NCBI RefSeq assembly: GCF_036588685.1
Contig: NC_086381.1
Coordinates: forward strand, 24,614,001 to 24,678,000
Origin: Mytilus trossulus
Taxonomy: Eukaryota
DNA: 64,000 nucleotides
Reading direction: 5' to 3'
In this document: positions 4,179-61,960 of the stretch, in pieces
Position numbering within the stretch: position 1 is the first letter of the stretch
Layout of the letters: every line of letters starts with the position of its first letter
Made by a program: the position numbers and the translations under genes
The notes under the pieces: model-generated
Databases searched by the model: none
What the model was told of the DNA's origin: nothing
What the model saw: only the letters and a program-made list of their open reading frames with translations

Positions 4179-4924
4179 CTAGAACACACCCGTGATATCA
4201 CGGGTCCGTGACTGAATTAAAGTATATAACTATGCGCAAGTATAGTATTAGTATTGTCATCTGATAAAGTCATGCCGGTTATAAGATACACAGTTTTCTC
4301 TGATTTCAAGTCTTTCTGTTTGAACCCGTCGAACTGGACCTTATCAATTATTGGTAATATTAATTATTTGGAAAACAAAAGGTCCTGGAATGGAGTATTT
4401 TTAATCAACAGCATTGTCCTATATAAGTTATAAATAAAGTTGATTTTTTTGATTCGCTGTTTTACGTCATGCCCACTAACAAATTGAAAACTGTACCTAT
4501 ACGCCTTATTTTTAGTCCAGATTTTTAATATTTGTATTGTTATCTTAGAAAGTCTTACTGATTAAACTACTACAATAGGTAACAATTTGACAATTTAGTA
4601 GTGTCAACCCTATGATTATGACCCGTGTATATAGCATATTAATCCTGAATACACCGTTTGGTGGTGCGCCTGTCAGATGCGGAACGTACAGATAAGGTAA
4701 TGGTAACAGGTGAATATACTGTTGGTATCGATATCGGACTCGACCCGGAACTTCTTAATTATTGACAATATTAATTACGTGGAAAACAAAAGGGCCTGGA
4801 GTGGTGTAATTTTTAATCTACACCTTTGTACTATATTAGTTAAATATAAAGTTGAAATCTGTGATTCGTCGTTTTTACGTGATGACGGCTGACAAATTGG
4901 ACCTCGTAATTTTAGTAATATAGA
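4179..4924 (-). mobile_element. Non-autonomous Helitron
   Basis: The minus strand starts TC (TCTATATTAC) and ends CTAG, inserted between A and T with no TSD. An 18-bp perfect palindrome acccgtgatatcacgggt (4188-4205) sits just before the 3' end. An internal block is duplicated (~4347 and ~4757). Confidence 0.9.
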
Positions 4925-4929
4925 TGTAT

Positions 4930-5268
4930 GTTTCATTATAATACGTTATTCTGATTGGCTATCTGCACATCACCTGTTATTCCGTGAGCAATTGCATTAC
5001 ACAATAAAACTTTTCATTCATGATGACACGAGGTCACATAATAAAGTTCACAAGTAAAAACTTGATGTAAATCGTGATTTCATGATCTTAGCTAAAAAAT
5101 GTAATTATAAGTATTGAATGCTCCTTTTTGTAACTTCATAGGGTTGTAAAAGCGTTGACCGTGCGCACATTTTTAGAATGAAGCGCTTCCGCGCTTCATA
5201 CAAAATGTACTTCGGTCAACGCTTTAACACCCCAATAAAGTTACAAAAAGAAGCATTCAATTCTTAAA
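4930..5268. mobile_element. MITE-like repeat with ~150-bp terminal hairpin
   Basis: 5113-5261 folds back: attgaatgct..gtaact..agcgttgaccg..atgaagcg / cgcttcat..cggtcaacgct..agttac..agcattcaat. Confidence 0.65.
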
Positions 5269-5979
5269 TGTCAATCAATATGGCGGGAATTGTCCAGGGT
5301 CGCATCCATTCAACAAGGTAGGATCAATACCTCATGTATATGTTTCACTCACATGGAATTTGAATATTGAATAAAATAAAATAAAAAGATGTGGTATTAG
5401 TGCCAATGAGAAAACTCTCTATCCAAGTCAAAATGTGTAAAAAGTAAACATTTGTAGGTCAAAATATGGCCTTCAACACGGAGACTTGGCTCATCAACAA
5501 GATACAAAGAATGCCAAAATGATTTATACAGAACAATCCAAACAGGAAAACCAACCGTCTTATCTATATTTTAAAAAAAAAAGAGTAACAAGAAACTATT
5601 AACAAAGAGCATCTTTCGTGTTCTCAACTTTCCGACTGTTCATATGATCAAAATGTTATGAGCGCAACATGTTACTGTTCAATTTGATACAGTTAACATT
5701 GTAAGTTGACATAATGTTGTATTGTATGGTCAGAAATAATCCATAATATTGGTAGAACCTATTAGTACACACATGGAGCTGTGAAGCATTAAATTTAAGT
5801 AAAGAACCTGAAAATTGTCCTGTTTTGAGATTATTCAGAGGGATCTGGTACTATACCATTTGATTACGTTGGTCACAAACCCACCTTGAATTTATTCACT
5901 ATTAGTCACTATAGTTATTTCTATGAGAGTCAAGTAAGTGCAAAAGGCAAAATAGAACATTGAAATAAAGAAAAGATAA

Positions 5980-6130
5980 TAATAGGACAAAAAAATATAG
6001 AACTGAGAAAACTTGATAGGACAAAAAAATATAGAACTGAGAAAAATAGGACAAACAAAAAAATATAGAACTGAGAAAATAGGACAAAAAATAAGAGAAT
6101 TGAGAAAAATAGGCCAAAAAAATATAGAAA
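5980..6130. repeat. ~30-bp purine-rich tandem repeat (~5 copies)
   Basis: Unit ataggacaaaaaaatatagaactgagaaaa. It produces spurious ORFs on the minus strand. Confidence 0.85.
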
Positions 6131-6583
6131 AGAGATTAATGGGTAAAATGTAGAAAGAATAGAGAAAAAATACCCAAATGAATAAACAAAAACTGAAGGA
6201 CACCATCCATGTAATAGTATTCATCGAAGTTGTAAACTTGTCTACATATGTAACAGAAAGTCCGATCAAATATAATTTATTATTGTTCGTGCATGTTTGG
6301 ATTTTAAATCTTGCTCGTGAAATGCCATTCCTATATACTAGAACTAGTATATTGTGCATACAGGGAACTAACTGGAAAGCAAATACTATCTGGAAATACA
6401 AAATATTTAGTATGATTGCCAATGAAACGAATTTCCACCACGAACAAATGACGAAGGAGTTAACATGAGTTTATGAGTGGCGATAAAGGCATCAGAGAGG
6501 CAATAACCCAGATCGACCAATACAATTCAAAGTAATACTAGTATTGAAGAACACCGTTGTAAATGTTTGTTTCTGTATAGAAT

Positions 6584-7016
6584 CATATTCAAAACAGTGT
6601 GGTCCTGGCCATTGATTGACGACCTGAATTATCCCATTGACTGGGACAGATAAGGTGAACGTTTGTCTGTAACGACCATTGCTCACTTCTTACTTATTAT
6701 ATAATTTAAACTGTGGGGTCACCAAAGGTTCCTAACGCCTTTAATGATAAAATAATTCGAAAAATTATTCAGGAATAACCTTTATGTTTTGATTTATATT
6801 ATTGATATAAATCAACACATCGTATTATTCCGGATTCGTTTTTCGAATTGCTTTTTTTAGGTGTTGAGAACCTTTGGTGACCCCACAGATTCAGTGTCTT
6901 TAACAAGTACATAGTGAGCAGTGATTGTTACCGACAAACGTTCACCTAATCTGTCCCAGTCAATGGGATAATTTAGGTCGTCAATCAATGGCCAGGACCA
7001 CACTGTTTTGAATATG
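6584..7016. mobile_element. Fold-back/MITE element, almost entirely palindromic
   Basis: Outer arms 6584-6740 and 6859-7016 are reverse complements. Inner arms (aattcgaaaa..tgatttatat / atataaatca..ttttcgaatt) close around ~6800. Confidence 0.85.
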
Positions 7017-8379
7017 TTATAGTTATTGACCAAGCAAGTCGGTATATAGAAGTTAATCTGCACATTTTTTATTTAATAAATGACGATTAAGACTTTGACA
7101 AATTGGGTACTTTCAAATTGTTGTATGAAAAAAAAACATAACCGAAATGATAATTAAGCTTTTTAATTTCTTTCCCTCAATAATATGCTTGAAAAGAGAA
7201 AGATAAACCGAGGAAGATTACCTAAACTTTAAATGTTGAATAAACAGAAAATACGTTTCTCTCCCCAAAATTTTGTATTTACTGTATTACTTTTTTAAAA
7301 CACGTCCTTCTAAACGAAGTCTGTTTGAACTCCAGCTTATCTCCCTGTTTTAAAAGAAACCGTTAACATGACCCCTTTAAATTCGATCCAAAAATATGGG
7401 GAATAGATATTCAAAAAGTCGTTATAATTTCCATTAAGTCTAAAGATAATCCAAATCAGAATTCTTTAATTCAGATATTCTTAGATATATTTCTTTTTTG
7501 GCAGAAATTACAAAAAAAAAAATAACCATTTTTCTGAATTTAAAACACTTACTAGTATTTAAGATTTATCTTGTACACAAAATATGATAATACATTTCAT
7601 GTTCAAGCTAAGATGAAAAAAATGGAATTAGAAACCTTTCATTTTTCCTATTTTTTGAAACTACGATGTTTGTACAAAGTTCAACTTTGTTGTAATTTCA
7701 AGGCAGATGGTTGATTCGGGGGGGGGGGGGTTTGGGGGGTGGGGGGTGGGGGTGGCTAACATGTCGTCACCATAGTATTGGACAAAGTGTCGAGTTTTAG
7801 CTCAATATTGTCAATATTGTTCTTGGTCTCGCTACACTCGGCGATGTCTTTTTTAATTTTATAGAATAACGCCCCTTCAAAATCTAGGAACCGCCCCTAC
7901 AGGTAAAAATAGATTTGAACTGTGCAGTATATCTGAGGTAGTTAATGCACACCTTAACTGTGCATTATCCAGATTATACCACAGTAAGAACAAAGAGATT
8001 TCACTCATGCCATGTGTTAAGATTCTATATACATCCTATCAAGGATAATTCATTGTATGATGACAGTACACCTCAGCGATAGCAAACTCAAGTTGAACAT
8101 ACCGCATTTCTGCGTTTATAGCGTTTCCCCACCGAAATGACGCTGTTTGTAGCCCTAAAGCTCAGAAAAAGAAACCATAGAGATGAGAAATTTTGGTATA
8201 ATTGATAATTAGACAACTATCTACCTGAAACCTTATGGCGTATATGTGACTGTACGATTTTCAACAAACACCCGTACCATATGGTAAATTATCAAAAGAC
8301 CGAAATTGCAGAATGTATAACAATTAAGCAGGCTGATTTATGTTTTAACGTAAACATGTCATTTTATAAAAAGTCGATA

Positions 8380-9310
8380 TCTGTTACATGCCTGAAATCA
8401 ACATACACTAAAGGTCCGATCTGTTACACATATGAAGTCAACATACGCACCAAAAAAAAAAAGACCCAGGATGTTACACAAATGAAGTCAACATACTCCC
8501 CAAAAGGCCCGATCCCGATCTGTTACACGCCAGAAGTACATGCAAAAGGCCCGATATGTTAAACGCATGAAGTAAACATACGCCCAAGATTCCTGATCTG
8601 TTATACACCTGCAGTAAACATACGCCAAAGAGGCCCGATCTGTTACACACATGATGTCACATTATGCCGAAAAGGCCCGATCTGTTTCACAACTGATGTT
8701 AGCATAAGCCCAACATACCCAATACCCTACACACATAAAGTCAACATACACCCCAACATTTCCAATCTGTTACACACATGAAGTAAAAATACTCCCAAAA
8801 GACCCTATCTGGTTCACACCAGTGTCAACATACACACAAAAAGCCCAATATCTTACACACCTGAAGTCAGAATTCTCGCAAAAGGTCCGATCTGTTTCAC
8901 ACCAGTGTCAACACACGCAAAAGGCCCAATCTCTTACACACCTGAAGTCAAAATACGCCCAAAGGCCCGATCTGTTTCACACCTTAGGTCAATATACATC
9001 AACATGTCCAATCTCTTACACACATAAAGTCAACATACACCAATATGTCCAATCTTTTACACACCTGAAGTCGACATACACACCAAATGTCCAATCTTTT
9101 ACTCACCTGAAGTCGACATACACACAAATTGACCAATCTTTTACATACACGAAGTCGACATACACACAAAATGTCCAATCTCTTACACACCTGAAATCAA
9201 CATACTCTCAAAAGGTCAGCTATGTATCATACCTGAAATCAACGTATACTCAAACGTCACGATCTGTTTCACACTGAAGTTAACGTACATCAAAATGTCA
9301 GATGTGTTAC
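8380..9310. repeat. ~39-40-bp minisatellite, ~23 diverged copies
   Basis: Consensus-like ttacacacctgaagtcaacatacacacaaaatgtccaatct; ends ~200 bp upstream of the ABCC start codon. Confidence 0.9.
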
Positions 9311-9506
9311 AAGGTGACCCAATCTAACATTTAGATCAGTGTATATTTACATAAGAGATGACTTTTATAATCATTTACAGACCAGTTATCACTCGGTCAT
9401 CATATCACATCTTTATCTATTGAAATAACTATCGAAATATCTATTGAAATATGTAGTCATAGGTTGATAATAAACATAATTTAAAACGTGCAAAGATTTG
9501 TGTTCA

Positions 9507-45532
<36,026 letters not shown>

Positions 45533-52151: not shown

Positions 52152-53759
52152 ATATACATTATTTTCTAATACATTTTCAATGATCATAAGGGTAATAATA
52201 TTTTATTAATCAGATTAAAATTGAAATTATATCTCTTTAGCATTAACATATTAATACGACTGAATAATCAATAGGATCCGGAAACAAGATATAAACTTAC
52301 ATTTATTTTTCCTAATAAAAAAAGAACAATTTTTATATGAAATATACTCGAGGGAAGTGCTCTGTAAGGTAAATAATAATAACTGATTCTTATAGAACAC
52401 ATTCAATACAACAAATCTTTTAAACTGTTGAGTTTAAATGACATTTGAGAACGCATGGAAAACATAAAAAATCATAGCTCTTTCTATTTACTTACTCTTT
52501 TTTAACATTCATGAATTCTTTATTGCACTCTTTGCTGTTTTAAAAAAATACTTAAGTTAACTTATTTGTTGCAATTTTACACGTGCTCTGTGTTACTGTA
52601 CTTGTATTTTTTGTTGCGAATTGTGTATTTCAAACAAGTTCGCGAGTATTTATTTTCGCGATTATTTCCCGAAAATAAAATTAAAAAACAAATAGCGTGC
52701 AATCAGCAATCACTGAATGAAATGAAATTTGTCGATAATACGTTATAGATTCATAATATATATATAATGTCTGCAACAATCAACATGCAATCTATGCAGG
52801 CGTGGATCAGTTTGTGGAAATAAACTAATACATTTACTGAATGCAAAAATTATATAAATGTCTACGAATATAACTTTAACACGCTAACTAAGACAAATAA
52901 ACTATATTTCGCTAGACAAACTAGCTTCATTAGGCGTGTGCAACTCTCAAGATGAAATCGGATGAATGACTAGTAATACTTTTGTAGCTCAAACTACACA
53001 AAGTTGGAGTAAAAGTTTAACATATTTATAGATTGTCTATATTAAAGGAAAAATAAATACTTTTTCAGCTTAAACTTTGCAAAGTTCGTGTTTCAGCTAT
53101 ATTCTTAGATAGTTATATGAATGTAAATACAAGAGTAAGTTTAGTTTATACGCATATATTGCTCAATAACTTCGAAAATATTGAAATTTCAAGAAACGCG
53201 TACAAAACGTCTTTGAATACCAACATTTCAATCATATATACGGGTGTCATTCGGTATATATGTAATGATTTTATAGGAATAGTGTATGCAATATATTACC
53301 TATAATATCACAATCCTATGCTTGAGTCATAAGTCGTCTATTAGGCCGCTCGTCAATCTGGGGACGTCCGCTCTGGATAACAACTTGGGTAATGACTGCC
53401 TAATAATCCATGGGAAATCCCGGAATTCCTTGGTATGACGTAGTAGTGTAAATGTATAAGGATAAAGGCCAAGAATATTTAGTTCCGAATAAACTGTTGA
53501 TATAATACCATATTCTTAACATTCCTCCCTCTTTCGTAGAAATGAACCCGTTCTGTAGAATAAATTTATAGGTATTCCTTTTACTTAACACTTTGAAGTT
53601 CGATGTAGGGAAATAAATCCTTAATTTGGAATGCAGTTGTCCGTAAATTGAGGTAGATACATGTGGCCATAACGTTGTAATGTCACAAAATGATCACAAT
53701 AAACTATGTACAATAACTATGTACAAAAAATGTACTATATACACAATATCCGCCATGAT

Positions 53760-54911
53760 TTAAATGATGCTGTAGACGTCTGTGGCATTCTTGGTCGTAA
53801 TATTGGCAATTTCTTCTACGCTACACAAGAAAATGTTTGCCAATTTTTCACAGATATCCTTTATCATCAACGGTGAACCAAAATCTTCAAACTCAGGATG
53901 TAGATACGGGGCATCTGTCTCCAATACAATGTCTTTTAATTTCATGTTACAAACTAGAGACCTATATTTTTGATATTTTTTGTCATTTAGGATGAAAGGT
54001 GAAATGCCAAATTTGCAGTTTGGAAATGACGTTTTCCATTTCCGATACATCACTTCATCTCCATTAAAACAGTGCCTGTGTAATTTTAAACTTTTCGGCA
54101 GCAACCGAACAAGTGTATTCAAACATATCTCATCCGTACGCCCATCTCCTCTGCAATGAATAACCAGCGGTAAATCTCTTTTAACTGCAATTGCTATTTG
54201 TTTTTCAAAAAACTTGATCTGTTTTTCTAAATCACATTTCCTCCCACTATTATCTAAACCACACTCACTGACAGCAACCACTCTATTCGCTTTCAACAGC
54301 CATTCCAAATCCGAAATCCATCCATTTAATTTTGATGTATTTTCCATCTCCACAATTCTTGGGTGAATGCCGAAAGTAAGTTTAATCCTGTTATCCTGCC
54401 TAATTTTAGATCTTAAATCACTAGATGGCCAGTTTCTTGGATAACAGTAATTGCTAATAAGATATGAAATTTTATAATCCTTATTGTTCCATGTCCAAAA
54501 AGATTGAGGTAATGAAATATGGCCTATTTTTTTCGATAGCATATCCAAATGAAAATGAGAGTCCGTAAGGTGTAGTGTCTCTTTTACCTCCAAAACGGGT
54601 CTTAAAGATATAATTTTCTCAACGGAAATAAAGTTCTCGCCCATTTCTGTTTGTTGGATCAATGAAGCTAATATTCGCCAATGTAACAATAACGGTATAC
54701 TGTATGGAGGTTGAACTATAATATTTTTACTTCCAAATTCAAATACACATTCATTCGTGGCATTAAATATGAATACCATTTTTAAATCTTTTCCCTGAAA
54801 AATGGGCTCTGAATGCTTAGGATAAACACAGATTTTGTCAGCTAAATTACAAAGATCTTGTAGCGTATCACATTCGAGTTCTTTAGAAACAACCTCCGAT
54901 AAACCATTCAT
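53760..54911 (-). CDS. tatD: TatD-family nuclease ORF; the frame stays open up to ~55040 and includes a C2H2 zinc finger
   Basis: Motifs TDSHFHL, GIHP, SECGLD, VIHCR, HCF and ETDAPY (metal ligands retained). The in-frame upstream sequence reads CQCKIQFAQNSVLDAHIAEWH. Confidence 0.9.
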   Translation of the reverse strand: MNGLSEVVSKELECDTLQDLCNLADKICVYPKHSEPIFQGKDLKMVFIFNATNECVFEFGSKNIIVQPPYSIPLLLHWRILASLIQQTEMGENFISVEKIISLRPVLEVKETLHLTDSHFHLDMLSKKIGHISLPQSFWTWNNKDYKISYLISNYCYPRNWPSSDLRSKIRQDNRIKLTFGIHPRIVEMENTSKLNGWISDLEWLLKANRVVAVSECGLDNSGRKCDLEKQIKFFEKQIAIAVKRDLPLVIHCRGDGRTDEICLNTLVRLLPKSLKLHRHCFNGDEVMYRKWKTSFPNCKFGISPFILNDKKYQKYRSLVCNMKLKDIVLETDAPYLHPEFEDFGSPLMIKDICEKLANIFLCSVEEIANITTKNATDVYSII

Positions 54912-55000
54912 TAGGTTAACCCAGCGTTCATATTTGTCTTCCGAGAATTTAATATTTGTATTCTTAATGTCAGATTGATGCCACTCTGCAATATGAGCAT

Positions 55001-55183
55001 CTAAAACACTGTTCTGAGCAAATTGTATTTTGCACTGACATTAGTGAAAATTTCCGCACACGTCGGACACTTTCTTCCCTTTTTGTATCTCTTTGTACTC
55101 GCACGAAGATACATTGCATCATTTTTTGGTAGTTCATTCTCAAAAGGTCCATAGTCTGGCTCAAATTCATCATCCTCATGCAT
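55001..55183 (-). pseudogene. Frameshifted N-terminus of the ZnF-TatD ORF (acidic leader, basic patch, CxxC)
   Basis: MHEDDEFEPDY..KRYKKGRKCPTCAEIF. The ATG follows a splice acceptor (minus strand ttttacttattcctgcag|tATG). Confidence 0.65.
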
Positions 55184-55264
55184 ACTGCAGGAATAAGTAA
55201 AACAGTGAGATGAAACATATACGACAAATAAAGAAAAATATCAAAATATATTAAGTTTCTTGAA

Positions 55265-55362
55265 AAGCAAAAATTATAAGCAAAATTATATATATGCAAA
55301 AAATTACGAGCAAAAATTATATATGCAAAAATTACGAGCAAAAAAAATATATGCAAAAATTG
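55265..55362. repeat. Short gcaaaaatta tandem array between pol and the TatD ORF
   Basis: gcaaaaatta(ta/cga) repeated ~7 times. Confidence 0.75.
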
Positions 55363-55496
55363 CGCACACTCATACATTAGTAAAGCTTAAAAATATGTTA
55401 CACTTTGGCTAAAAATTTCTTTTCTCAGTACCAATAGTGGACAAAAAACTATATTACAATATTATACATAAATAATGATTATCTGTAACAAAATCA

Positions 55497-58400
55497 TTAA
55501 TCCTCGACATAGTCTGATAAGTAGGCAGGTTTTTTCCTTTGCCTCCTCCTACTTAACATATCGGATTCAACAGCAGATGCATCCATTTTATGAACATGAA
55601 GATCCGCATTAACATTCTTCTCGCCCACGTCGGTTTCAGCTTTCTTCTCTGAAGAAGTCGAATTACTGACTGTGTGAGACACCAGAGGATCTGGCGCACT
55701 CGCAATAGCAGCATCACCAATTAAATGAGACATCAGAGGATCTGACGAACTCTTGACATTGGTGTTTTCTTTAAATATATCTGGCATTCCAATTGGACAT
55801 TCGTCAATCTCATTGGTTTCTTCATCCATCGTTTGATCCACTTCTTGATTCCTCATCCTTTTAATCCAGATTGGAAGTTCCAAAGTTTAATTCTGTCATG
55901 ATGAATCCAAGATTCTGTTTTCCTATCCTTAATCTTGTATAATACAAGTGAACGCTGTTATCAAATATGGTCCTTTCCACGGAGATTTCAATTTCGCAGA
56001 CTGTCCCACCTTTGTAGCTTGATTGAGTTTATGAACGACATCTCCAACATTATACTTATTCTGGTTATATTTCAAATCATATATGCCTTTTTGTCGTTCC
56101 TGTGAAGCCTTCAAATTATCTCTGGCGATGTCATGCACCCTGTTTAAATTCTCCACGAAATCCTTAATATATTGTGGAACTTCTTTTCTGTCAGCATTCC
56201 AGTTTGAAGTGCCTAAAATTACATCAATTGGTTGAAAAACTTCTCTTCCCAGCATCATCATGTTAGCAGAGAATCCTGTTTGCGAGTTGCGTGTTGCTCG
56301 GACAGCTCCAACTAGTTGTTGAAAAAATAAATCCCAGTTGTGTTGTTTACTTTTGATGAAACATCTTATTGTCTGTAGTATTGTTTTGTTATACCGTTCC
56401 ACTTGTCCATTAGACGACGGATGATATGGTGTGGTTCTAGTCTTGGCTATTTGTAGTAGTTCACAGAGTTGCCTTACTAAGTTTCCATCCATGTTTATTC
56501 CTTGGTCTGTGTGGAGTTCAATTGGACAGCCAAATCTAAGAAAAAAAATGATCCACCAGGGTTCTTGCCACAGCTTCAGCTGTCTGTGTTGCAATTGGGA
56601 AGCATTCTAACCACTTTGTATACTGATCAATTACCATAAGCAAATATTTACTTTCCATTTTTGTAACAGGAAGAGGCCCTAAGATGTCCATGTGTACTCG
56701 TTCCATTGGGAAACCAGCATGGTATTGTCCTAACTTCGATCTGGCAGTTCGTGTTGTTTTGTTGTTAAGATTACATGTAGTGCATGATTTCACATACAGT
56801 TTGCAGGATTGCGTCATATTTAACCAAACAGCTATTTGTTTCAGTTTCTCTAATGTTTTATACTGTCCCATGTGACCAGACGAGACTACATCATGTCAAT
56901 CATGTAGAAGTTCCCTTTGCATCTGTTTTGGTGTCATGAAAAGGAGTCTTGGCAAAATAGGATATTCCCATTTGTAAAGTAAAATATTGTCTTTTATCTG
57001 TATTTGCTGTCGTAATGACCAAAAATGTCGGACTACTTCACTACACTGTTTTAGTTCTGCTTTAGTTGGCTCATATTTATCCTCGATCCATCTCTTTAAA
57101 GTTTTTAAATCAGAATCTCTCATTTGTTCTTCATGCAGTTCTACTGGAGAGTATGAAGGAGTCCAATTTGTTTTATATGAACCTTCGTCAACAAGTCTCC
57201 TTATGGTTAAGGGGACAACAAAATCCACTTCTTCCTCAAATGTTTGCTACTGTTGCCGTTCCCTTGTGCAAAACTTGCAACCCCCACAAGGTAACTCTTC
57301 TAAATTGAAATCTGGTCTGTAATTACGGCATGCATCAATGTCATCAGGTATTCTTGACAATCCATCTGCGTTAATGTGTTTCTTTCCAGCTCTGTGTTGT
57401 ATAATCATGTTATACTGAGACAGTTCTTCTATCCATCTTGCCAGTTGTCCTTTGATATTTTCAAAGTTTAGTAACCAGGTTAAACTGTTGTGGTCCGTTC
57501 TTATCACAAAAGTACGATCTAATAGATAGTGACGACATTGTCTAGTAAAACATATTATAGCCAATAATTCCTTTCTTGTTGTACAATAATTCCGCTGAGC
57601 AGGTGTCAAGACTTTACTTGCGAAGCTTACTGTTCTTTCCACTCCATCTTGTATCTGACTTAATTCTGCCCCGATAGATTTTTTGTGAAGCATCTGTATC
57701 TAGAATAAATAAGTCATCAGGTGTTGGATAACTTAAGATCACTGAATATATCAAAGCTTCATTAAGATTTTGAAAAGACTGTGTTTGTTCTTCATCCCAT
57801 GCAAATTCTGCCTTTGGACCAGTAAGTCGATGTAAAGGTTCCGCAATTTGGGCAAATTGTTCTATGTGATCACGATGATAGTTAACAAACCCTATAAAGG
57901 ATTCTACTTCTTTTCTGTTCCTTGGTGTTGGCCATTTCTTTACAGATCCTATACTGTCAGGATTCACTGCAACTCCATCGGCGCTGACTATTTTCCCCCA
58001 AAACTTCACTTGTGTTTGCAGCAGCTGACATTTGCTCGGTTTTAACTTTAGGTTATACTTCTGGAACCTCGAAAAAACTTCACTTAAACTACAGATGTGG
58101 TCATCAAAATCTTTGACTAAAACAATTACATCGTCAAGATATGCTAGACATTCTTTCCAGGAAAGGCCTTGCAGAACAAGCTGAATTACCCTGCTGAATG
58201 TTGCAGGACTATTACATAGACCAAATGGAAGTTTTGTATACTGAAATAGACCGTATTTAGTAACACACGCTGTCTTGTGTCTGTCGTTTTCGTCTAAGTT
58301 TACCTGATAATATCCTGAGGCCATATCCAGCGTTGACATGTGTCTATGTTCGAAATCTGGAACGCGTCTTTTATAGTACCGTCATTAAACTTCCGGAAGT

Positions 58401-59607
58401 CTATGCAGTATCTGAGCTTCCCGTCTTTCTTCCTTACTAATACTGGTGGCGATGCCCATTCCGAAGTAGACGGTTCAATAATTCCTTTATCTAACAGTTG
58501 CTGTAAATGTTCTTCTTCTTCTTTCTGAAATCCCAGGGGTGTTCTTCGCATTTTCTGTTTAATGGGATGGGAATTTCCAGTATCAATCTCATGTTGAATA
58601 TCTCCATTGAAAAGTCCAATATCCAGGTCATCCTTAGCGAAAATATCTTGGAACTTCAGTAATAATGTGGCTAGCTGTAATGACTGTTGGTTGTTTAAAT
58701 TTGCTAGTGATCTGTTGAATAGTTCTTTTAAATGTGTTGGTAGCTTCTCTCTTAGCTGGTTCAGGTCAAAGGACTGCTTTGGATCAATATCTATTTTATT
58801 CAACTTTAATCTATTTTCGTCTGTTTCCTCCATTACAGCATTAATCTCTAATCCTATACCCATCTGAAAATCCTTTTTCAGAGTTTTAAATTGTTCTGTT
58901 GGATTTCGTAGCATTACAGGAACTTGTTTTTTACCCATACAGAGCATATTTGGAACCAACAGGCCCTTCATGAAATTGGTTGGTTGAATTACAATATCAT
59001 TCATCGGTTTCTCATCTAACTCAACAATGGCAACTTTACTAGAACCAGGTGGTATGACTGTTTTCTTTTTTATCTTTATTCTGTTTATTTTCATTTGTTG
59101 GTCCTGTCTGTTTGAAGTCATAAAAGATGGAACTTTTTCACCTTTAAGTTTGATGGAATAGTCTGTTAAGTCAATAATTGCTTTTTGGCTCTCAAGAAAA
59201 TCTATACCTAGAATGAGATTATCTGTTATTTCAGCTACAACCATATCCCATTTAACTGTGGAACTGCCTATGTACAAGTTTACATTTTCTGCTATTCCTG
59301 CATTCATTTCTGAACAAGCTCCAGCACCTTTAAGTACGATGTTATCTTTGATTTTTGGTTTATAAGTTAACTGGTCAAAGAATGTCTTACTTATAACCGA
59401 CACCTGTGCTGCTGTGTATATTACTCCGAAAGTTTTCTTACTGTTCACCACTACAGGAATATATAATGTTTTGGCGTCTGAGTCTGGGATATTTGACTAA
59501 TATAAATTGACTTCAGTTTGTTTTTCTAAAGATAGAGTTGGTGGCCTTCCAGTATCACCTGGATAGGCTGAAGATCGGCCTACTGCTTCAACCCGTTGGA
59601 GTTTAAA
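55497..59607 (-). pseudogene. pol: Gypsy pol (protease, RT, RNase H, integrase), multiply disrupted
   Basis: PR IYTAAQVS (catalytic D replaced by Y) and ILGIDFL. RT WASPPVLV..RYCIDFR, LPFGLCNSPATF, YLDD. RH LDTDAS, NYCTTRKELLA, TDHNSL, NADGLSR. IN H..GH..CTTC, MDILGP, TDQG, NGQVERYN, WKGPY. Confidence 0.95.
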
Positions 59608-61256
59608 GACTCCCTGTTAACATTTAGTGAGGGTGACCTTGACCTGTTTCTTTATCTTTGTGGCGATCTACTCTTTGGTTTTTCACATTGTGCAATAAAA
59701 TGCCCTTCTTCGCCACAGTTAAAGCATTTATTATCTCTTATAGGACTTCTTCCTGGACTTGATAATCTTTGTGATTGTCCAAATTTAATGGTTGAATTAC
59801 CTCTTTTCAAGATGTCCAGTATCTGTTTGATGCTTGTCTTTGTGTCCTGAACATCTTCTTCTGTCTTTTTAAGTCTCGACTCAAATCTGCTAATTACATC
59901 AGTATCACTTGCTCCTTTTCTGTACAAAGCTCTTACACTTGTTGTAGATTCCTGATCCCCGTGTGAGTCATACATGTCCGTTTCTGTTTCGTGGAATATC
60001 ACCCTTTTAACCTCAGGCTTTTTATTTCATAAAATAACTTTTTGATTGGTAACAGCACTCTTCACATATTTAAGGGCTTTGTCCAAACTATCAGGATCCT
60101 TATCCATTGCTGTTAAAGCTGCCTTTTTGTCCATGCATCCTTTCAGAAAAGCATTAGTGGCAACTATCTGAATAAAATCATCAGGTGTTCCTGGAAACCC
60201 ATCAGTTGCAAGATCCTGTGTTCTCTCTGCACACTCATCAAGAGGTTCCTCTGGCAATTGACGAAGGTCTTGTAGTTGTCTCCTTATAACATGAAGTAAG
60301 TCCTTTCTTCCAAATCTGTCCTCCATTTTTTTTACAAACAGCTTGGTATCCTTCCTAGACTGACTTTGGCATTGTGGTAAAAAACTTAAGTGCTCTGTCT
60401 CTCAAACATTCAATGAGCTTGTCCAGTCTGTCTTGATTCGTCCAGTTATATCTATTGGCAATATGATTGAATTGAACAAGGTACGGCCGCCAGTCACTTC
60501 TACCATCATAGGTGCTAATTTTAGGTGGCAACGGACCATCTTGTCGTTTACTGCCCTGTCCGGTGTGTGTTTTGGTTTTCCAACTAGGTTCATCTTTAGT
60601 TTCTGCTATTTGCATGCTGGGCTTCTCTTTTGATAATGACCATTTTTCAATCATCTCGTGTAACTTCGTTTTATTATCTGTCTCCGTTTTCATAGTCATC
60701 TGTATTTTTCTCATCTGTTCGTCTCGTTCTTCTATAGATTGATTTAATTTCAGCTCTCTTTCGCTAAATTTGTTAATCAATTCTTCCATTTCTTCCTTAT
60801 GTCTCTTGCCAAGGTTATCATACTGTTGTTCGTAATCATGTTCTCTGTTTTTCATCTTCACTGTGAAATCCTGGTTTACAGCTGCAATCCTGTTTTCCTA
60901 ATCTGCTTTCATTAGTGCTTTGTCTTTCTCTGCATTTGAAAAGTATGTTTTTAATTTTTCATTCATTGCTGCCATCTTCTTTATTTCTTTGGCATTTTTT
61001 TCTGCTTTCCCCGTAACATTTTTTGGATACCTTCTTGGATTTCTTCGGATGGTTCCAATATTATAACCCCAGTCTTCATCAGTGGATCCCACATGGTGTT
61101 AGGAATATCCGTCATAAGTTTAAGGTCTTCCAAAATAAGAGGGGAGCCTTTCTCTTCTCTTTTGTTAATAATCTTTTGTGCTCTTCTGTCACTTATTCCT
61201 GTTATCTGTTTAAGTTGTTCCAATGAAGCTGTGTTTATTTTGATAGGTTGTGACAT
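59580..61256 (-). pseudogene. gag: Gypsy gag with N-terminal helix-hairpin-helix domain, coiled coil, capsid-like region and CCHC knuckle; disrupted
   Basis: MSQPIKINTASLEQLKQITGISDRRAQKII (HhH); YDGRSDWRPYLVQF; AFLKG; CFNCGEEGHFIAQC; ends SLNSNGLKQ*. Confidence 0.9.
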
Positions 61257-61960
61257 GATTACCAAATTAAAGTTTAGTAATCAAAATCTAATAAACTTTT
61301 ATAAAAAAAAAAATAATCTATGTATATTACTACTTGTATAGGAATTGAATAATGTCAGGATGAATAACAAAAGTAATATGTACGCACAGGTTATTATAAT
61401 ACAGACACAAGCACTATCACAAAACAAAAAGCTTATTTGTATTTAATCACAAGCTTAAAAAACACTACACCATAAACAATATTTTTTTTTAAAAATCACA
61501 AACACTTTTACATACAATCACAACTATAGAAAATTTGGTATATTAATCTTATTCTGATTTGCCAATGAAAACACAAGTATAGAAAAAAACAAAACTCAAT
61601 CTGAAAACACCTATGACATCAGAGGATCTGACGCGCAAAGCTGTTTCAGAAATTAACTTATTTTAATAAACCTGTTTATATTTTCATCTAAGTTAAAGGA
61701 CATAAATATTTAAAACTTTATATGCATAAGTGTAAATAAATATATGAGTGACACAATCAAATATGTTTATATTTGTCTTTCTTTTTAATATCAAACATAC
61801 TTACAACTTCTTGTCCAATCAAATTGCTTGAATTTGCCTTCTAATTTTCATAGTAAATATTTTTCCCGTGTACTAAATACCTACGCATGAATGACCACAA
61901 GGATAAGATTTCATTGTATTGTAATCAAGATATTCGAACAAAAATTCCTACTGGCTATTA

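Follow-up and report, generated by a model that had tools for sequence, protein, structure and literature searches.

The TatD-type nuclease frame that follows a retrotransposon pol in the mussel Mytilus trossulus raises the question of what gene it belongs to, how that gene is expressed, and what its product might do. The frame lies in the window, which is the whole 64,000-nucleotide stretch of DNA analysed here, and the original prediction held that it is the remains of a spliced gene in which two zinc fingers were joined to the nuclease. We found that the frame belongs to the minus-strand remains (53261-61800) of a Ty3/Gypsy LTR retrotransposon that has decayed and lacks its 5' LTR. The pol domains follow the Ty3/Gypsy order of protease, RT, RNase H and integrase, as judged by Pfam and the list of open reading frames (ORFs). 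Sibling elements carry two LTRs (256 bp, TG..CA), a primer-binding site, a polypurine tract and a 4-bp target-site duplication; of these terminal hallmarks the window copy retains the 3' LTR and polypurine tract only. It aligns with its sibling (L031 plus L032) at 90-92% from 61800 on, and because the similarity ends at that point, the window copy is without a 5' LTR and primer-binding site and is therefore itself unable to produce an LTR-spliced RNA. The third gene of the element is called ORF3, and the features, with a slash marking the splice point, are as follows.

53261..53521, minus strand: 3' LTR, the sole LTR of the window copy, 85% to the LTR of sibling L031
53294..53302, minus strand: LTR splice-donor site TAG/GTAATA, here in the 3' LTR (sequence; junction contig of run X5 on L031)
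53522..53536, minus strand: polypurine tract (sequence; same position in siblings)
53760..54566, minus strand: TatD nuclease domain of ORF3, frame open (Pfam PF01026, E 3.8e-41)
54600..54977, minus strand: helical part of the N-terminal zinc domain, W..L.NG ... PP ... LLHW (alignments; model of the sibling domain)
54978..55037, minus strand: finger 2 remnant, truncated at its start (ORF list; sibling alignment)
55037..55038, minus strand: break, 61 nt missing relative to sibling L003/L031, frameshift (sibling alignment)
55038..55183, minus strand: start of ORF3 (ATG 55183), with a leader that is first acidic and then basic and the Cys half of finger 1 (sequence)
55185..55212, minus strand: splice acceptor, pyrimidine-rich run plus CAG at 55187-55185 (sequence; joined in two contigs on the sibling)
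55497..59496, minus strand: pol (protease, RT, RNase H, integrase), interrupted by stops and frameshifts (Pfam; ORF list)
59652..61256, minus strand: gag, broken, with N-terminal helix-hairpin-helix and CCHC knuckle (Pfam HHH_3 8e-10, zf-CCHC 5e-6)
61257..61800, minus strand: remaining 5' leader, element cut at 61800 (sibling alignment)

The donor that is joined to ORF3 is the matching site of a 5' LTR, not the copy at 53294..53302 in the window's 3' LTR.

Several side features were seen in the element and around it. A motif of about 25 nt is found three times in the 5' leader of sibling L031 (about 1898, 1977 and 2372) and twice near the end of pol, its window positions being 55675-55701, 55726-55752 and 61612-61638; it might act as a signal for packaging, dimer formation or protein binding. 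The Gag N-terminus (60984-61256) is a ComEA-like helix-hairpin-helix (HHH_3, E 8e-10), and several related families have a gag that opens with a similar N-terminus. Between pol and the acceptor, a short tandem repeat in the spacer (55283-55359) is about 60 nt longer here than in the sibling. Elsewhere in the window lie an inverted repeat at 42976-44823 (461-nt arms, 99% complementary, 926 nt apart), possibly a young non-autonomous DNA transposon, a 42-nt tandem array (8379-9274) and a 350-aa open frame on the plus strand (1627-2679).

The two overlapping frames at the start of ORF3 read as the original prediction had described them, and all of its coordinates are correct. The minus-strand frame 53760..55040 is open for 426 aa, starts CQCKIQFAQNSVLDAHIAEWH and has its first ATG at codon 44 (54911). 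The other frame begins at ATG 55183, encodes an acidic and then basic leader followed by CPTCAEIFTNV (CPTC of finger 1 at 55069-55058), and stops at 55001-55003. A T/C-rich run, CAG at 55187-55185 and a single T precede this ATG. Compared with sibling L003/L031 (94% identity), the window copy lacks 61 nt at 55037/55038, a position ambiguous by about 6 nt, so that both His of finger 1 and the beginning of finger 2 are gone; a deletion near 55040 that fused the fingers and shifted the frame had been foreseen. The C2H2 pattern read in the TatD frame holds as the remnant of finger 2, and the first Cys of its 'C.C' is a product of the letters at the break junction. In the sibling, ORF3 runs on uninterrupted from that ATG for 494 aa, in the order acidic leader, basic stretch, CxxC..RH..H-LPW..CWxC..H, helical region and TatD, which is the continuous leader-finger-finger-TatD frame expected of intact copies. 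Both fingers are likewise read through in P0002 (19 member sequences, Mytilus edulis) and in seven other families. A second sibling, C12, is nearer to the window copy (dS 0.056) and keeps the inter-finger region, though broken further up; since P0002 also has both fingers, the 61-nt loss is particular to the window copy. We regard it as virtually certain that the natural architecture of ORF3 is a zinc-finger-like domain joined to TatD.

The C-terminal part of ORF3 belongs to the TatD family. Pfam PF01026 is matched by all 21 members, the best Foldseek matches are TatD structures (TM 0.82 by target), and the metal-binding residues H232, E327, H363, H391, E442 and D444 are invariant. In the window copy DSHFH, IHCR, HRHCF and ETDAPY are present, and GECG reads SECG. 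The motifs suggest that the natural product is probably an active metal-dependent nuclease. The best named protein relatives of the window come from Mytilus mussels and the best named cellular matches to ORF3 are fish TATDN2; a PDB profile search placed bacterial YcfH first, with TATDN2 absent from its matches. We built a quick tree of 90 TatD domains, composed of a third of 80 metagenome loci, 10 fish proteins named TATDN2 and a selection of further domains. In it the eight element TatDs and every other row with the zinc domain form one 46-row clade (SH-aLRT 98) that includes oyster- and scallop-named proteins. This clade groups with TATDN2, apart from prokaryote-type TatD (SH-aLRT 100), in a tree that is without TATDN1 and TATDN3 and that does not fix the branching order among the element clade, TATDN2 and two unnamed proteins. 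The zinc module had no match among the 10 named fish TATDN2 proteins of the tree.

The TATDN2 study describes the human enzyme as degrading R-loop RNA and hairpin RNA, with a requirement for E593 and E705, little DNA nuclease activity, and loss of R-loop binding when the N-terminus is removed; it also describes 3' exonuclease activity of bacterial TatD towards single-stranded DNA and RNA, as well as abasic endonuclease activity of TATDN1 and TATDN3 (PMC10711561). Matched by motif, E593 and E705 are the invariant E327 and E442 of ORF3. Cellular TATDN2 thus resembles the mussel protein in its C-terminal TatD with the same acidic catalytic residues. They differ in that the human N-terminus is long and disordered (PMC10711561), whereas ORF3 has the zinc domain, is intronless and lies inside an LTR element. 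Public annotations call the ORF3-type proteins P0001, P0003, P0006, P0009 and P0012 tatD or putative deoxyribonuclease TATDN2, treating them like host genes, yet P0006 and an element family in this genome share an identical TatD domain. Some bivalve 'TATDN2' or 'tatD' annotations are retrotransposon ORFs.

Searching the 1.3-Gb genome gave at least 68 TatD-like and at least 60 zinc-domain matches. At 15 of the 16 loci fetched, ORF3 lies between pol and the 3' LTR of an element with an LTR pair of 210-263 bp, 10 pairs being identical, and the 4-bp target duplication is exact in 12 of the 14 elements examined, one more having a one-base shift. Eight diverged families carry ORF3 (TatD identity 26-51%), and all eight keep the TatD motifs DxHxH, GExGLD, HCR/HSR, HCF and E[TS]DxP. 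Mean identity across these families, one element each, is 53% for integrase, 38% for TatD and 32% for the zinc domain. An RT-based tree recovered five of the eight families only (Mantel p 0.06), and integrase was therefore used for the final comparison. The integrase and TatD trees have groupings in common (Mantel r 0.86, p 0.002, 8 families), and zinc-domain distances also follow those of integrase (r 0.80, p 0.006, 8 families); the families are kin with a shared history, so this agreement shows co-inheritance only. The best 29 of 150 integrase matches each lie, by eye, within about 3 kb of an ORF3 match, the next integrase family (56% identity) has no ORF3 among the matches listed, and a further family at 57% has one. 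The dN/dS between subfamilies is 0.12 (424 codons) and that between the two decayed copies is 0.42. ORF3 is co-inherited with integrase and is under purifying selection. Co-inheritance, low dN/dS and motifs kept in eight families together point to one old capture of a TATDN2-like gene by the clade, followed by continued selection.

Scans of metagenome and viral contigs gave 80 and 19 TatD-domain loci, none of which reached the zinc domain, and further protein searches added nothing. Two proteins, P0167 and P0187, join integrase pieces to the zinc module in a context outside this genome. Elements with ORF3 stand in close inverted pairs at three places (C3:91493530-91499817, C11:5641882-5648460 and C35:715361-724814). 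LTR-motif pairs only 4.8 kb apart, with no ORF3 listed, were seen at C3:64043872 and 64048654 and at C3:89626587 and 89631400; these are possibly internally deleted derivatives of the family of the window element.

The structure prediction that had been proposed for a consensus protein was run on the natural sibling protein. The full 494-aa model has a mean pLDDT of 83.7 and a pTM of 0.57, with the first 33 residues disordered and the C-terminus matching TatD. Residues 34-212 modelled alone with 96 sequences reach a pLDDT of 93.8 and a pTM of 0.89, and because of this confidence we take the fingers and the supposed linker as one rigid domain of about 170 aa. The fingers and the helical region are thus predicted to form a single 170-aa domain, and the idea of a mere linker gives way to a conserved folded region. 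This zinc domain has no Pfam family, Foldseek matched it to nothing in PDB or BFVD at E 0.001, and none of 48,161 chains reached a Z of 5 (best 4.3), which is not proof of a new fold. The matches to domain residues 1-60 are DNA-bound C2H2 pairs, the best at Z 4.3 and rmsd 3.3 over 56 residues; these superpositions are weak overall (Z 3-4.3, under 8; rmsd about 3 across 51-58 residues). Residues 72-178 give weak XRE-type helix-turn-helix matches (Z 3.2-3.3). The ESM Atlas returned, as leads only, unnamed clusters at 0.90 and C2H2 families under 0.9.

Finger 1 is short, with 9-10 residues between the second Cys and the first His in 91 of 94 sequences where a classical C2H2 finger has 12. In finger 2 the first His is in place in 54/94, and both His are kept in only 38/94. 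The inter-finger linker has 10 residues in all 55 sequences compared (HLPW), and a TGEKP-type linker occurs in 0/150 relatives. At the contact positions, finger 2 has Q at -1 in 26/55 and K or R at 6 in 23/55, RR or KR stands before the finger 1 His in 35/55, and position 3 is hydrophobic or small in 36/55. The basic residues and the Q at -1 leave it plausible that the zinc domain binds nucleic acid. Like Kruppel-type C2H2 arrays, ORF3 has CxxC...H...H twice and a pair that overlaps weakly in structure; it differs from them in the short first finger, the 10-residue HLPW linker, the variable finger 2 His and the predicted packing of the pair with a helical region.

The zinc domain comprises 278 representatives at 50% clustering. 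Among the best 150 relatives 64 match TatD, and of those with at least 200 residues after the domain 53/59 do so. Seven large unnamed proteins of 1400-3000 aa (P0123, P0126, P0140, P0143, P0153, P0158 and P0218) lack TatD and combine several copies of the domain with B-box or ankyrin regions. In the two ankyrin proteins that were read, the copies retain finger 1 together with HLPW and the helical region, and finger 2 is missing. The domain is thus confidently predicted, belongs to no Pfam family and is shared with unrelated large proteins.

How ORF3 might be expressed is indicated by its start. An AG stands 0-1 nt upstream of the first ATG in six of the eight families (0.49 expected, P 1.3e-6), a seventh has CAG-T before the second ATG, and the eighth has CAG 13 nt upstream of the ATG. 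Every family has a donor-like GT in its LTR, 29-62 nt from the LTR end. This GT ranks first within the LTR in three families, second in four and third in one, with a combined p of 0.001 that rests on a region picked after the LTRs had been viewed and on approximate base frequencies.

We mapped 8 of 24 listed sequencing runs on the sibling element in search of junctions; the search for runs listed no holder recorded as RNA. Run X5, which is only guessed to be RNA, gave a 608-nt contig (depth 5.6) that consists of LTR 1216-1422, three other letters and 8785-9087. On the sibling sequence the joint runs from donor AG/GTAATA at 1428/1429 to acceptor CAG/T-ATG at 8786/8787; the intron between them is of the GT-AG type, is 7.36 kb long and takes out gag and pol together with the primer-binding site. 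The donor is inside the LTR, 40 nt short of the LTR end and ahead of the primer-binding site, and the coverage of the run is confined to the LTR and ORF3. The three letters at the joint differ from the reference LTR, and the exact variant was not found in this genome; letters immediately upstream of the donor vary among genomic LTRs. No joined LTR-ORF3 DNA form was found in this genome, the three pattern matches not being similar to the element. We infer that the X5 junction represents spliced RNA. An RNA of this kind is without the primer-binding site and therefore would not be primed for reverse transcription or copied to DNA.

In run X1, also only guessed to be RNA, a contig starts at the same acceptor AG with 28 foreign letters. 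These match a host repeat (32 matches), in which they are followed by AAG/GTATGG in 9 of the 10 loci read; the acceptor therefore takes a host donor too. The repeat loci L051-L060 hold a 42-nt stretch between acceptor-like and donor-like sites, L056 being without the donor. The element's own junction was seen in one of the eight runs only, in a single contig. One contig of run X8 passes unspliced across the acceptor; a second joint in that run (4214 to 9548) has the ends AC..CA and was not taken as splicing. Run X2 covers most of the element in a DNA-like manner, with no LTR-to-ORF3 joint, and in runs X3 and X6 the acceptor is uncovered. Two runs on record as RNA, read to 6% and 18%, gave 48 and 5 reads with no joint; expression in them is very low. 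Overall, ORF3 is very probably expressed from a spliced RNA. The env gene of envelope-carrying Ty3/Gypsy elements is spliced to an acceptor of its own, and the env-style expression proposed for ORF3 agrees in its acceptor, which is conserved and used in two contigs. It departs from the proposal in its donor, which lies inside the LTR and precedes the primer-binding site rather than following it in the leader. In foamy viruses the splice donor is in R.

We prefer the reading that ORF3 encodes a TATDN2-type accessory nuclease, made from an LTR-spliced RNA and acting on structured RNA or R-loops; taken as a whole chain, it comes near an even chance without reaching it. A clade of mussel Ty3/Gypsy elements would keep a third gene after pol for a zinc-finger-like domain joined to TatD, and the 5' LTR would drive a short RNA spliced from its own donor to the acceptor just upstream of the ORF3 ATG. 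The zinc domain would substitute for TATDN2's own substrate-binding N-terminus and bind nucleic acid by shape, not by long sequence. The nuclease would then remove R-loops or double-stranded RNA that form at the element or come from it, and the element would thereby be transcribed or escape RNA silencing. That the substrate is RNA or an R-loop is tentatively predicted by analogy with the human enzyme; against it, single-stranded DNA is also a substrate of TatD enzymes (PMC10711561).

The original prediction had proposed that the product could be a sequence-targeted nuclease. In that case the fingers would read DNA sequence and bring TatD to the element's own LTR, to rival elements or to host loci. 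The weak superposition of the finger pair on DNA-bound C2H2 pairs, the weak helix-turn-helix likeness of the helical part, and the Q and basic residues at and near the contact positions all speak for such a protein, but Z values under 8 may reflect a common arrangement. Moreover, finger 1 is three residues short, finger 2 often lacks its His pair, the linker is fixed and never TGEKP-like, position 3 is mostly hydrophobic or small, and large ankyrin proteins carry the module with finger 2 missing. Two C2H2 fingers would read about 6 bp only, and 14 insertion sites have, by eye, no long motif in common, only the 4-bp duplication. We therefore consider sequence targeting quite unlikely.

A helper of reverse transcription or integration that processes DNA, either a 3' exonuclease or an abasic endonuclease trimming or cleaning the element's cDNA with the zinc domain docked on Gag, integrase or chromatin, would fit the activities of bacterial TatD and of TATDN1 and TATDN3 (PMC10711561), and the domain's pairing with ankyrin and B-box regions suits an adaptor. 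Yet the nearest named relatives are TATDN2, with its little DNA nuclease activity (PMC10711561), and no ORF3 is among the matches listed for the related family with 56% identity in integrase, so the core cycle likely runs without ORF3; this role seems rather unlikely. ORF3 could also be a captured host gene carried as passive cargo, its junctions arising from chance use of a cryptic acceptor, as the host-repeat donor in one of the two junction contigs and the very low expression in RNA runs would allow. This is contradicted by the selection evidence, since in eight families at 26-51% identity the frames stay open and the catalytic residues do not vary, dN/dS is low and the acceptor beside the ATG is conserved, and we regard it as most improbable.

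Compared with known systems, the accessory-nuclease gene has parallels in position. Errantivirus env and other envelope-carrying Ty3/Gypsy elements likewise have a third ORF between pol and the 3' LTR (PMC13524379). In ORF3 a nuclease domain stands instead of a fusion glycoprotein: the acidic leader, zinc domain and TatD account for the 494-aa product, and its domain content includes no fusion glycoprotein of the env type, with signal peptide and membrane anchor. In the bdelloid rotifer elements Juno and Vesta, too, the env position downstream of pol is taken by an enzyme, the ORF3 product being a DEDDy exonuclease or a GDSL esterase, and such ORF3s are typically expressed from spliced messages (PMC5408684). 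The mussel ORF3 differs from them in having a TatD barrel rather than DEDDy, a fused zinc domain, and a clade-wide rather than family-by-family occurrence (PMC5408684); the main text of that paper has no TatD. A literature search for TatD or TATDN2 in LTR elements, which covered papers and not repeat databases (Repbase, Dfam) or supplements, found nothing; the available text of PMC6238403 contains neither 'nuclease' nor 'ORF', and that of PMC12709183 contains no transposon terms.

Enzymatic third ORFs in LTR elements are thus already known from rotifers, and the TatD cargo with its undescribed domain appears to be the new part. Few env-position enzymes of LTR retrotransposons are known, and to these a TatD nuclease is added in at least eight recently active families of one genome, and annotations from oyster and scallop contain similar proteins. 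More broadly, a marine-invertebrate clade of elements may encode a natural targeted nuclease, in which the zinc domain would steer a TATDN2-derived enzyme to particular nucleic acids by way of an LTR-spliced RNA that cannot itself retrotranspose; we hold this as doubtful. It would be directed at R-loops of the element itself, at silencing RNAs or at a short DNA motif. If true, the retroelement would carry in ORF3 an enzyme for counter-defence, and in host ankyrin and B-box proteins the zinc domain would serve as a reader. ORF3 permits a direct test of the roles that an accessory nuclease may have in such elements, namely R-loop clearing, anti-silencing and cDNA processing.
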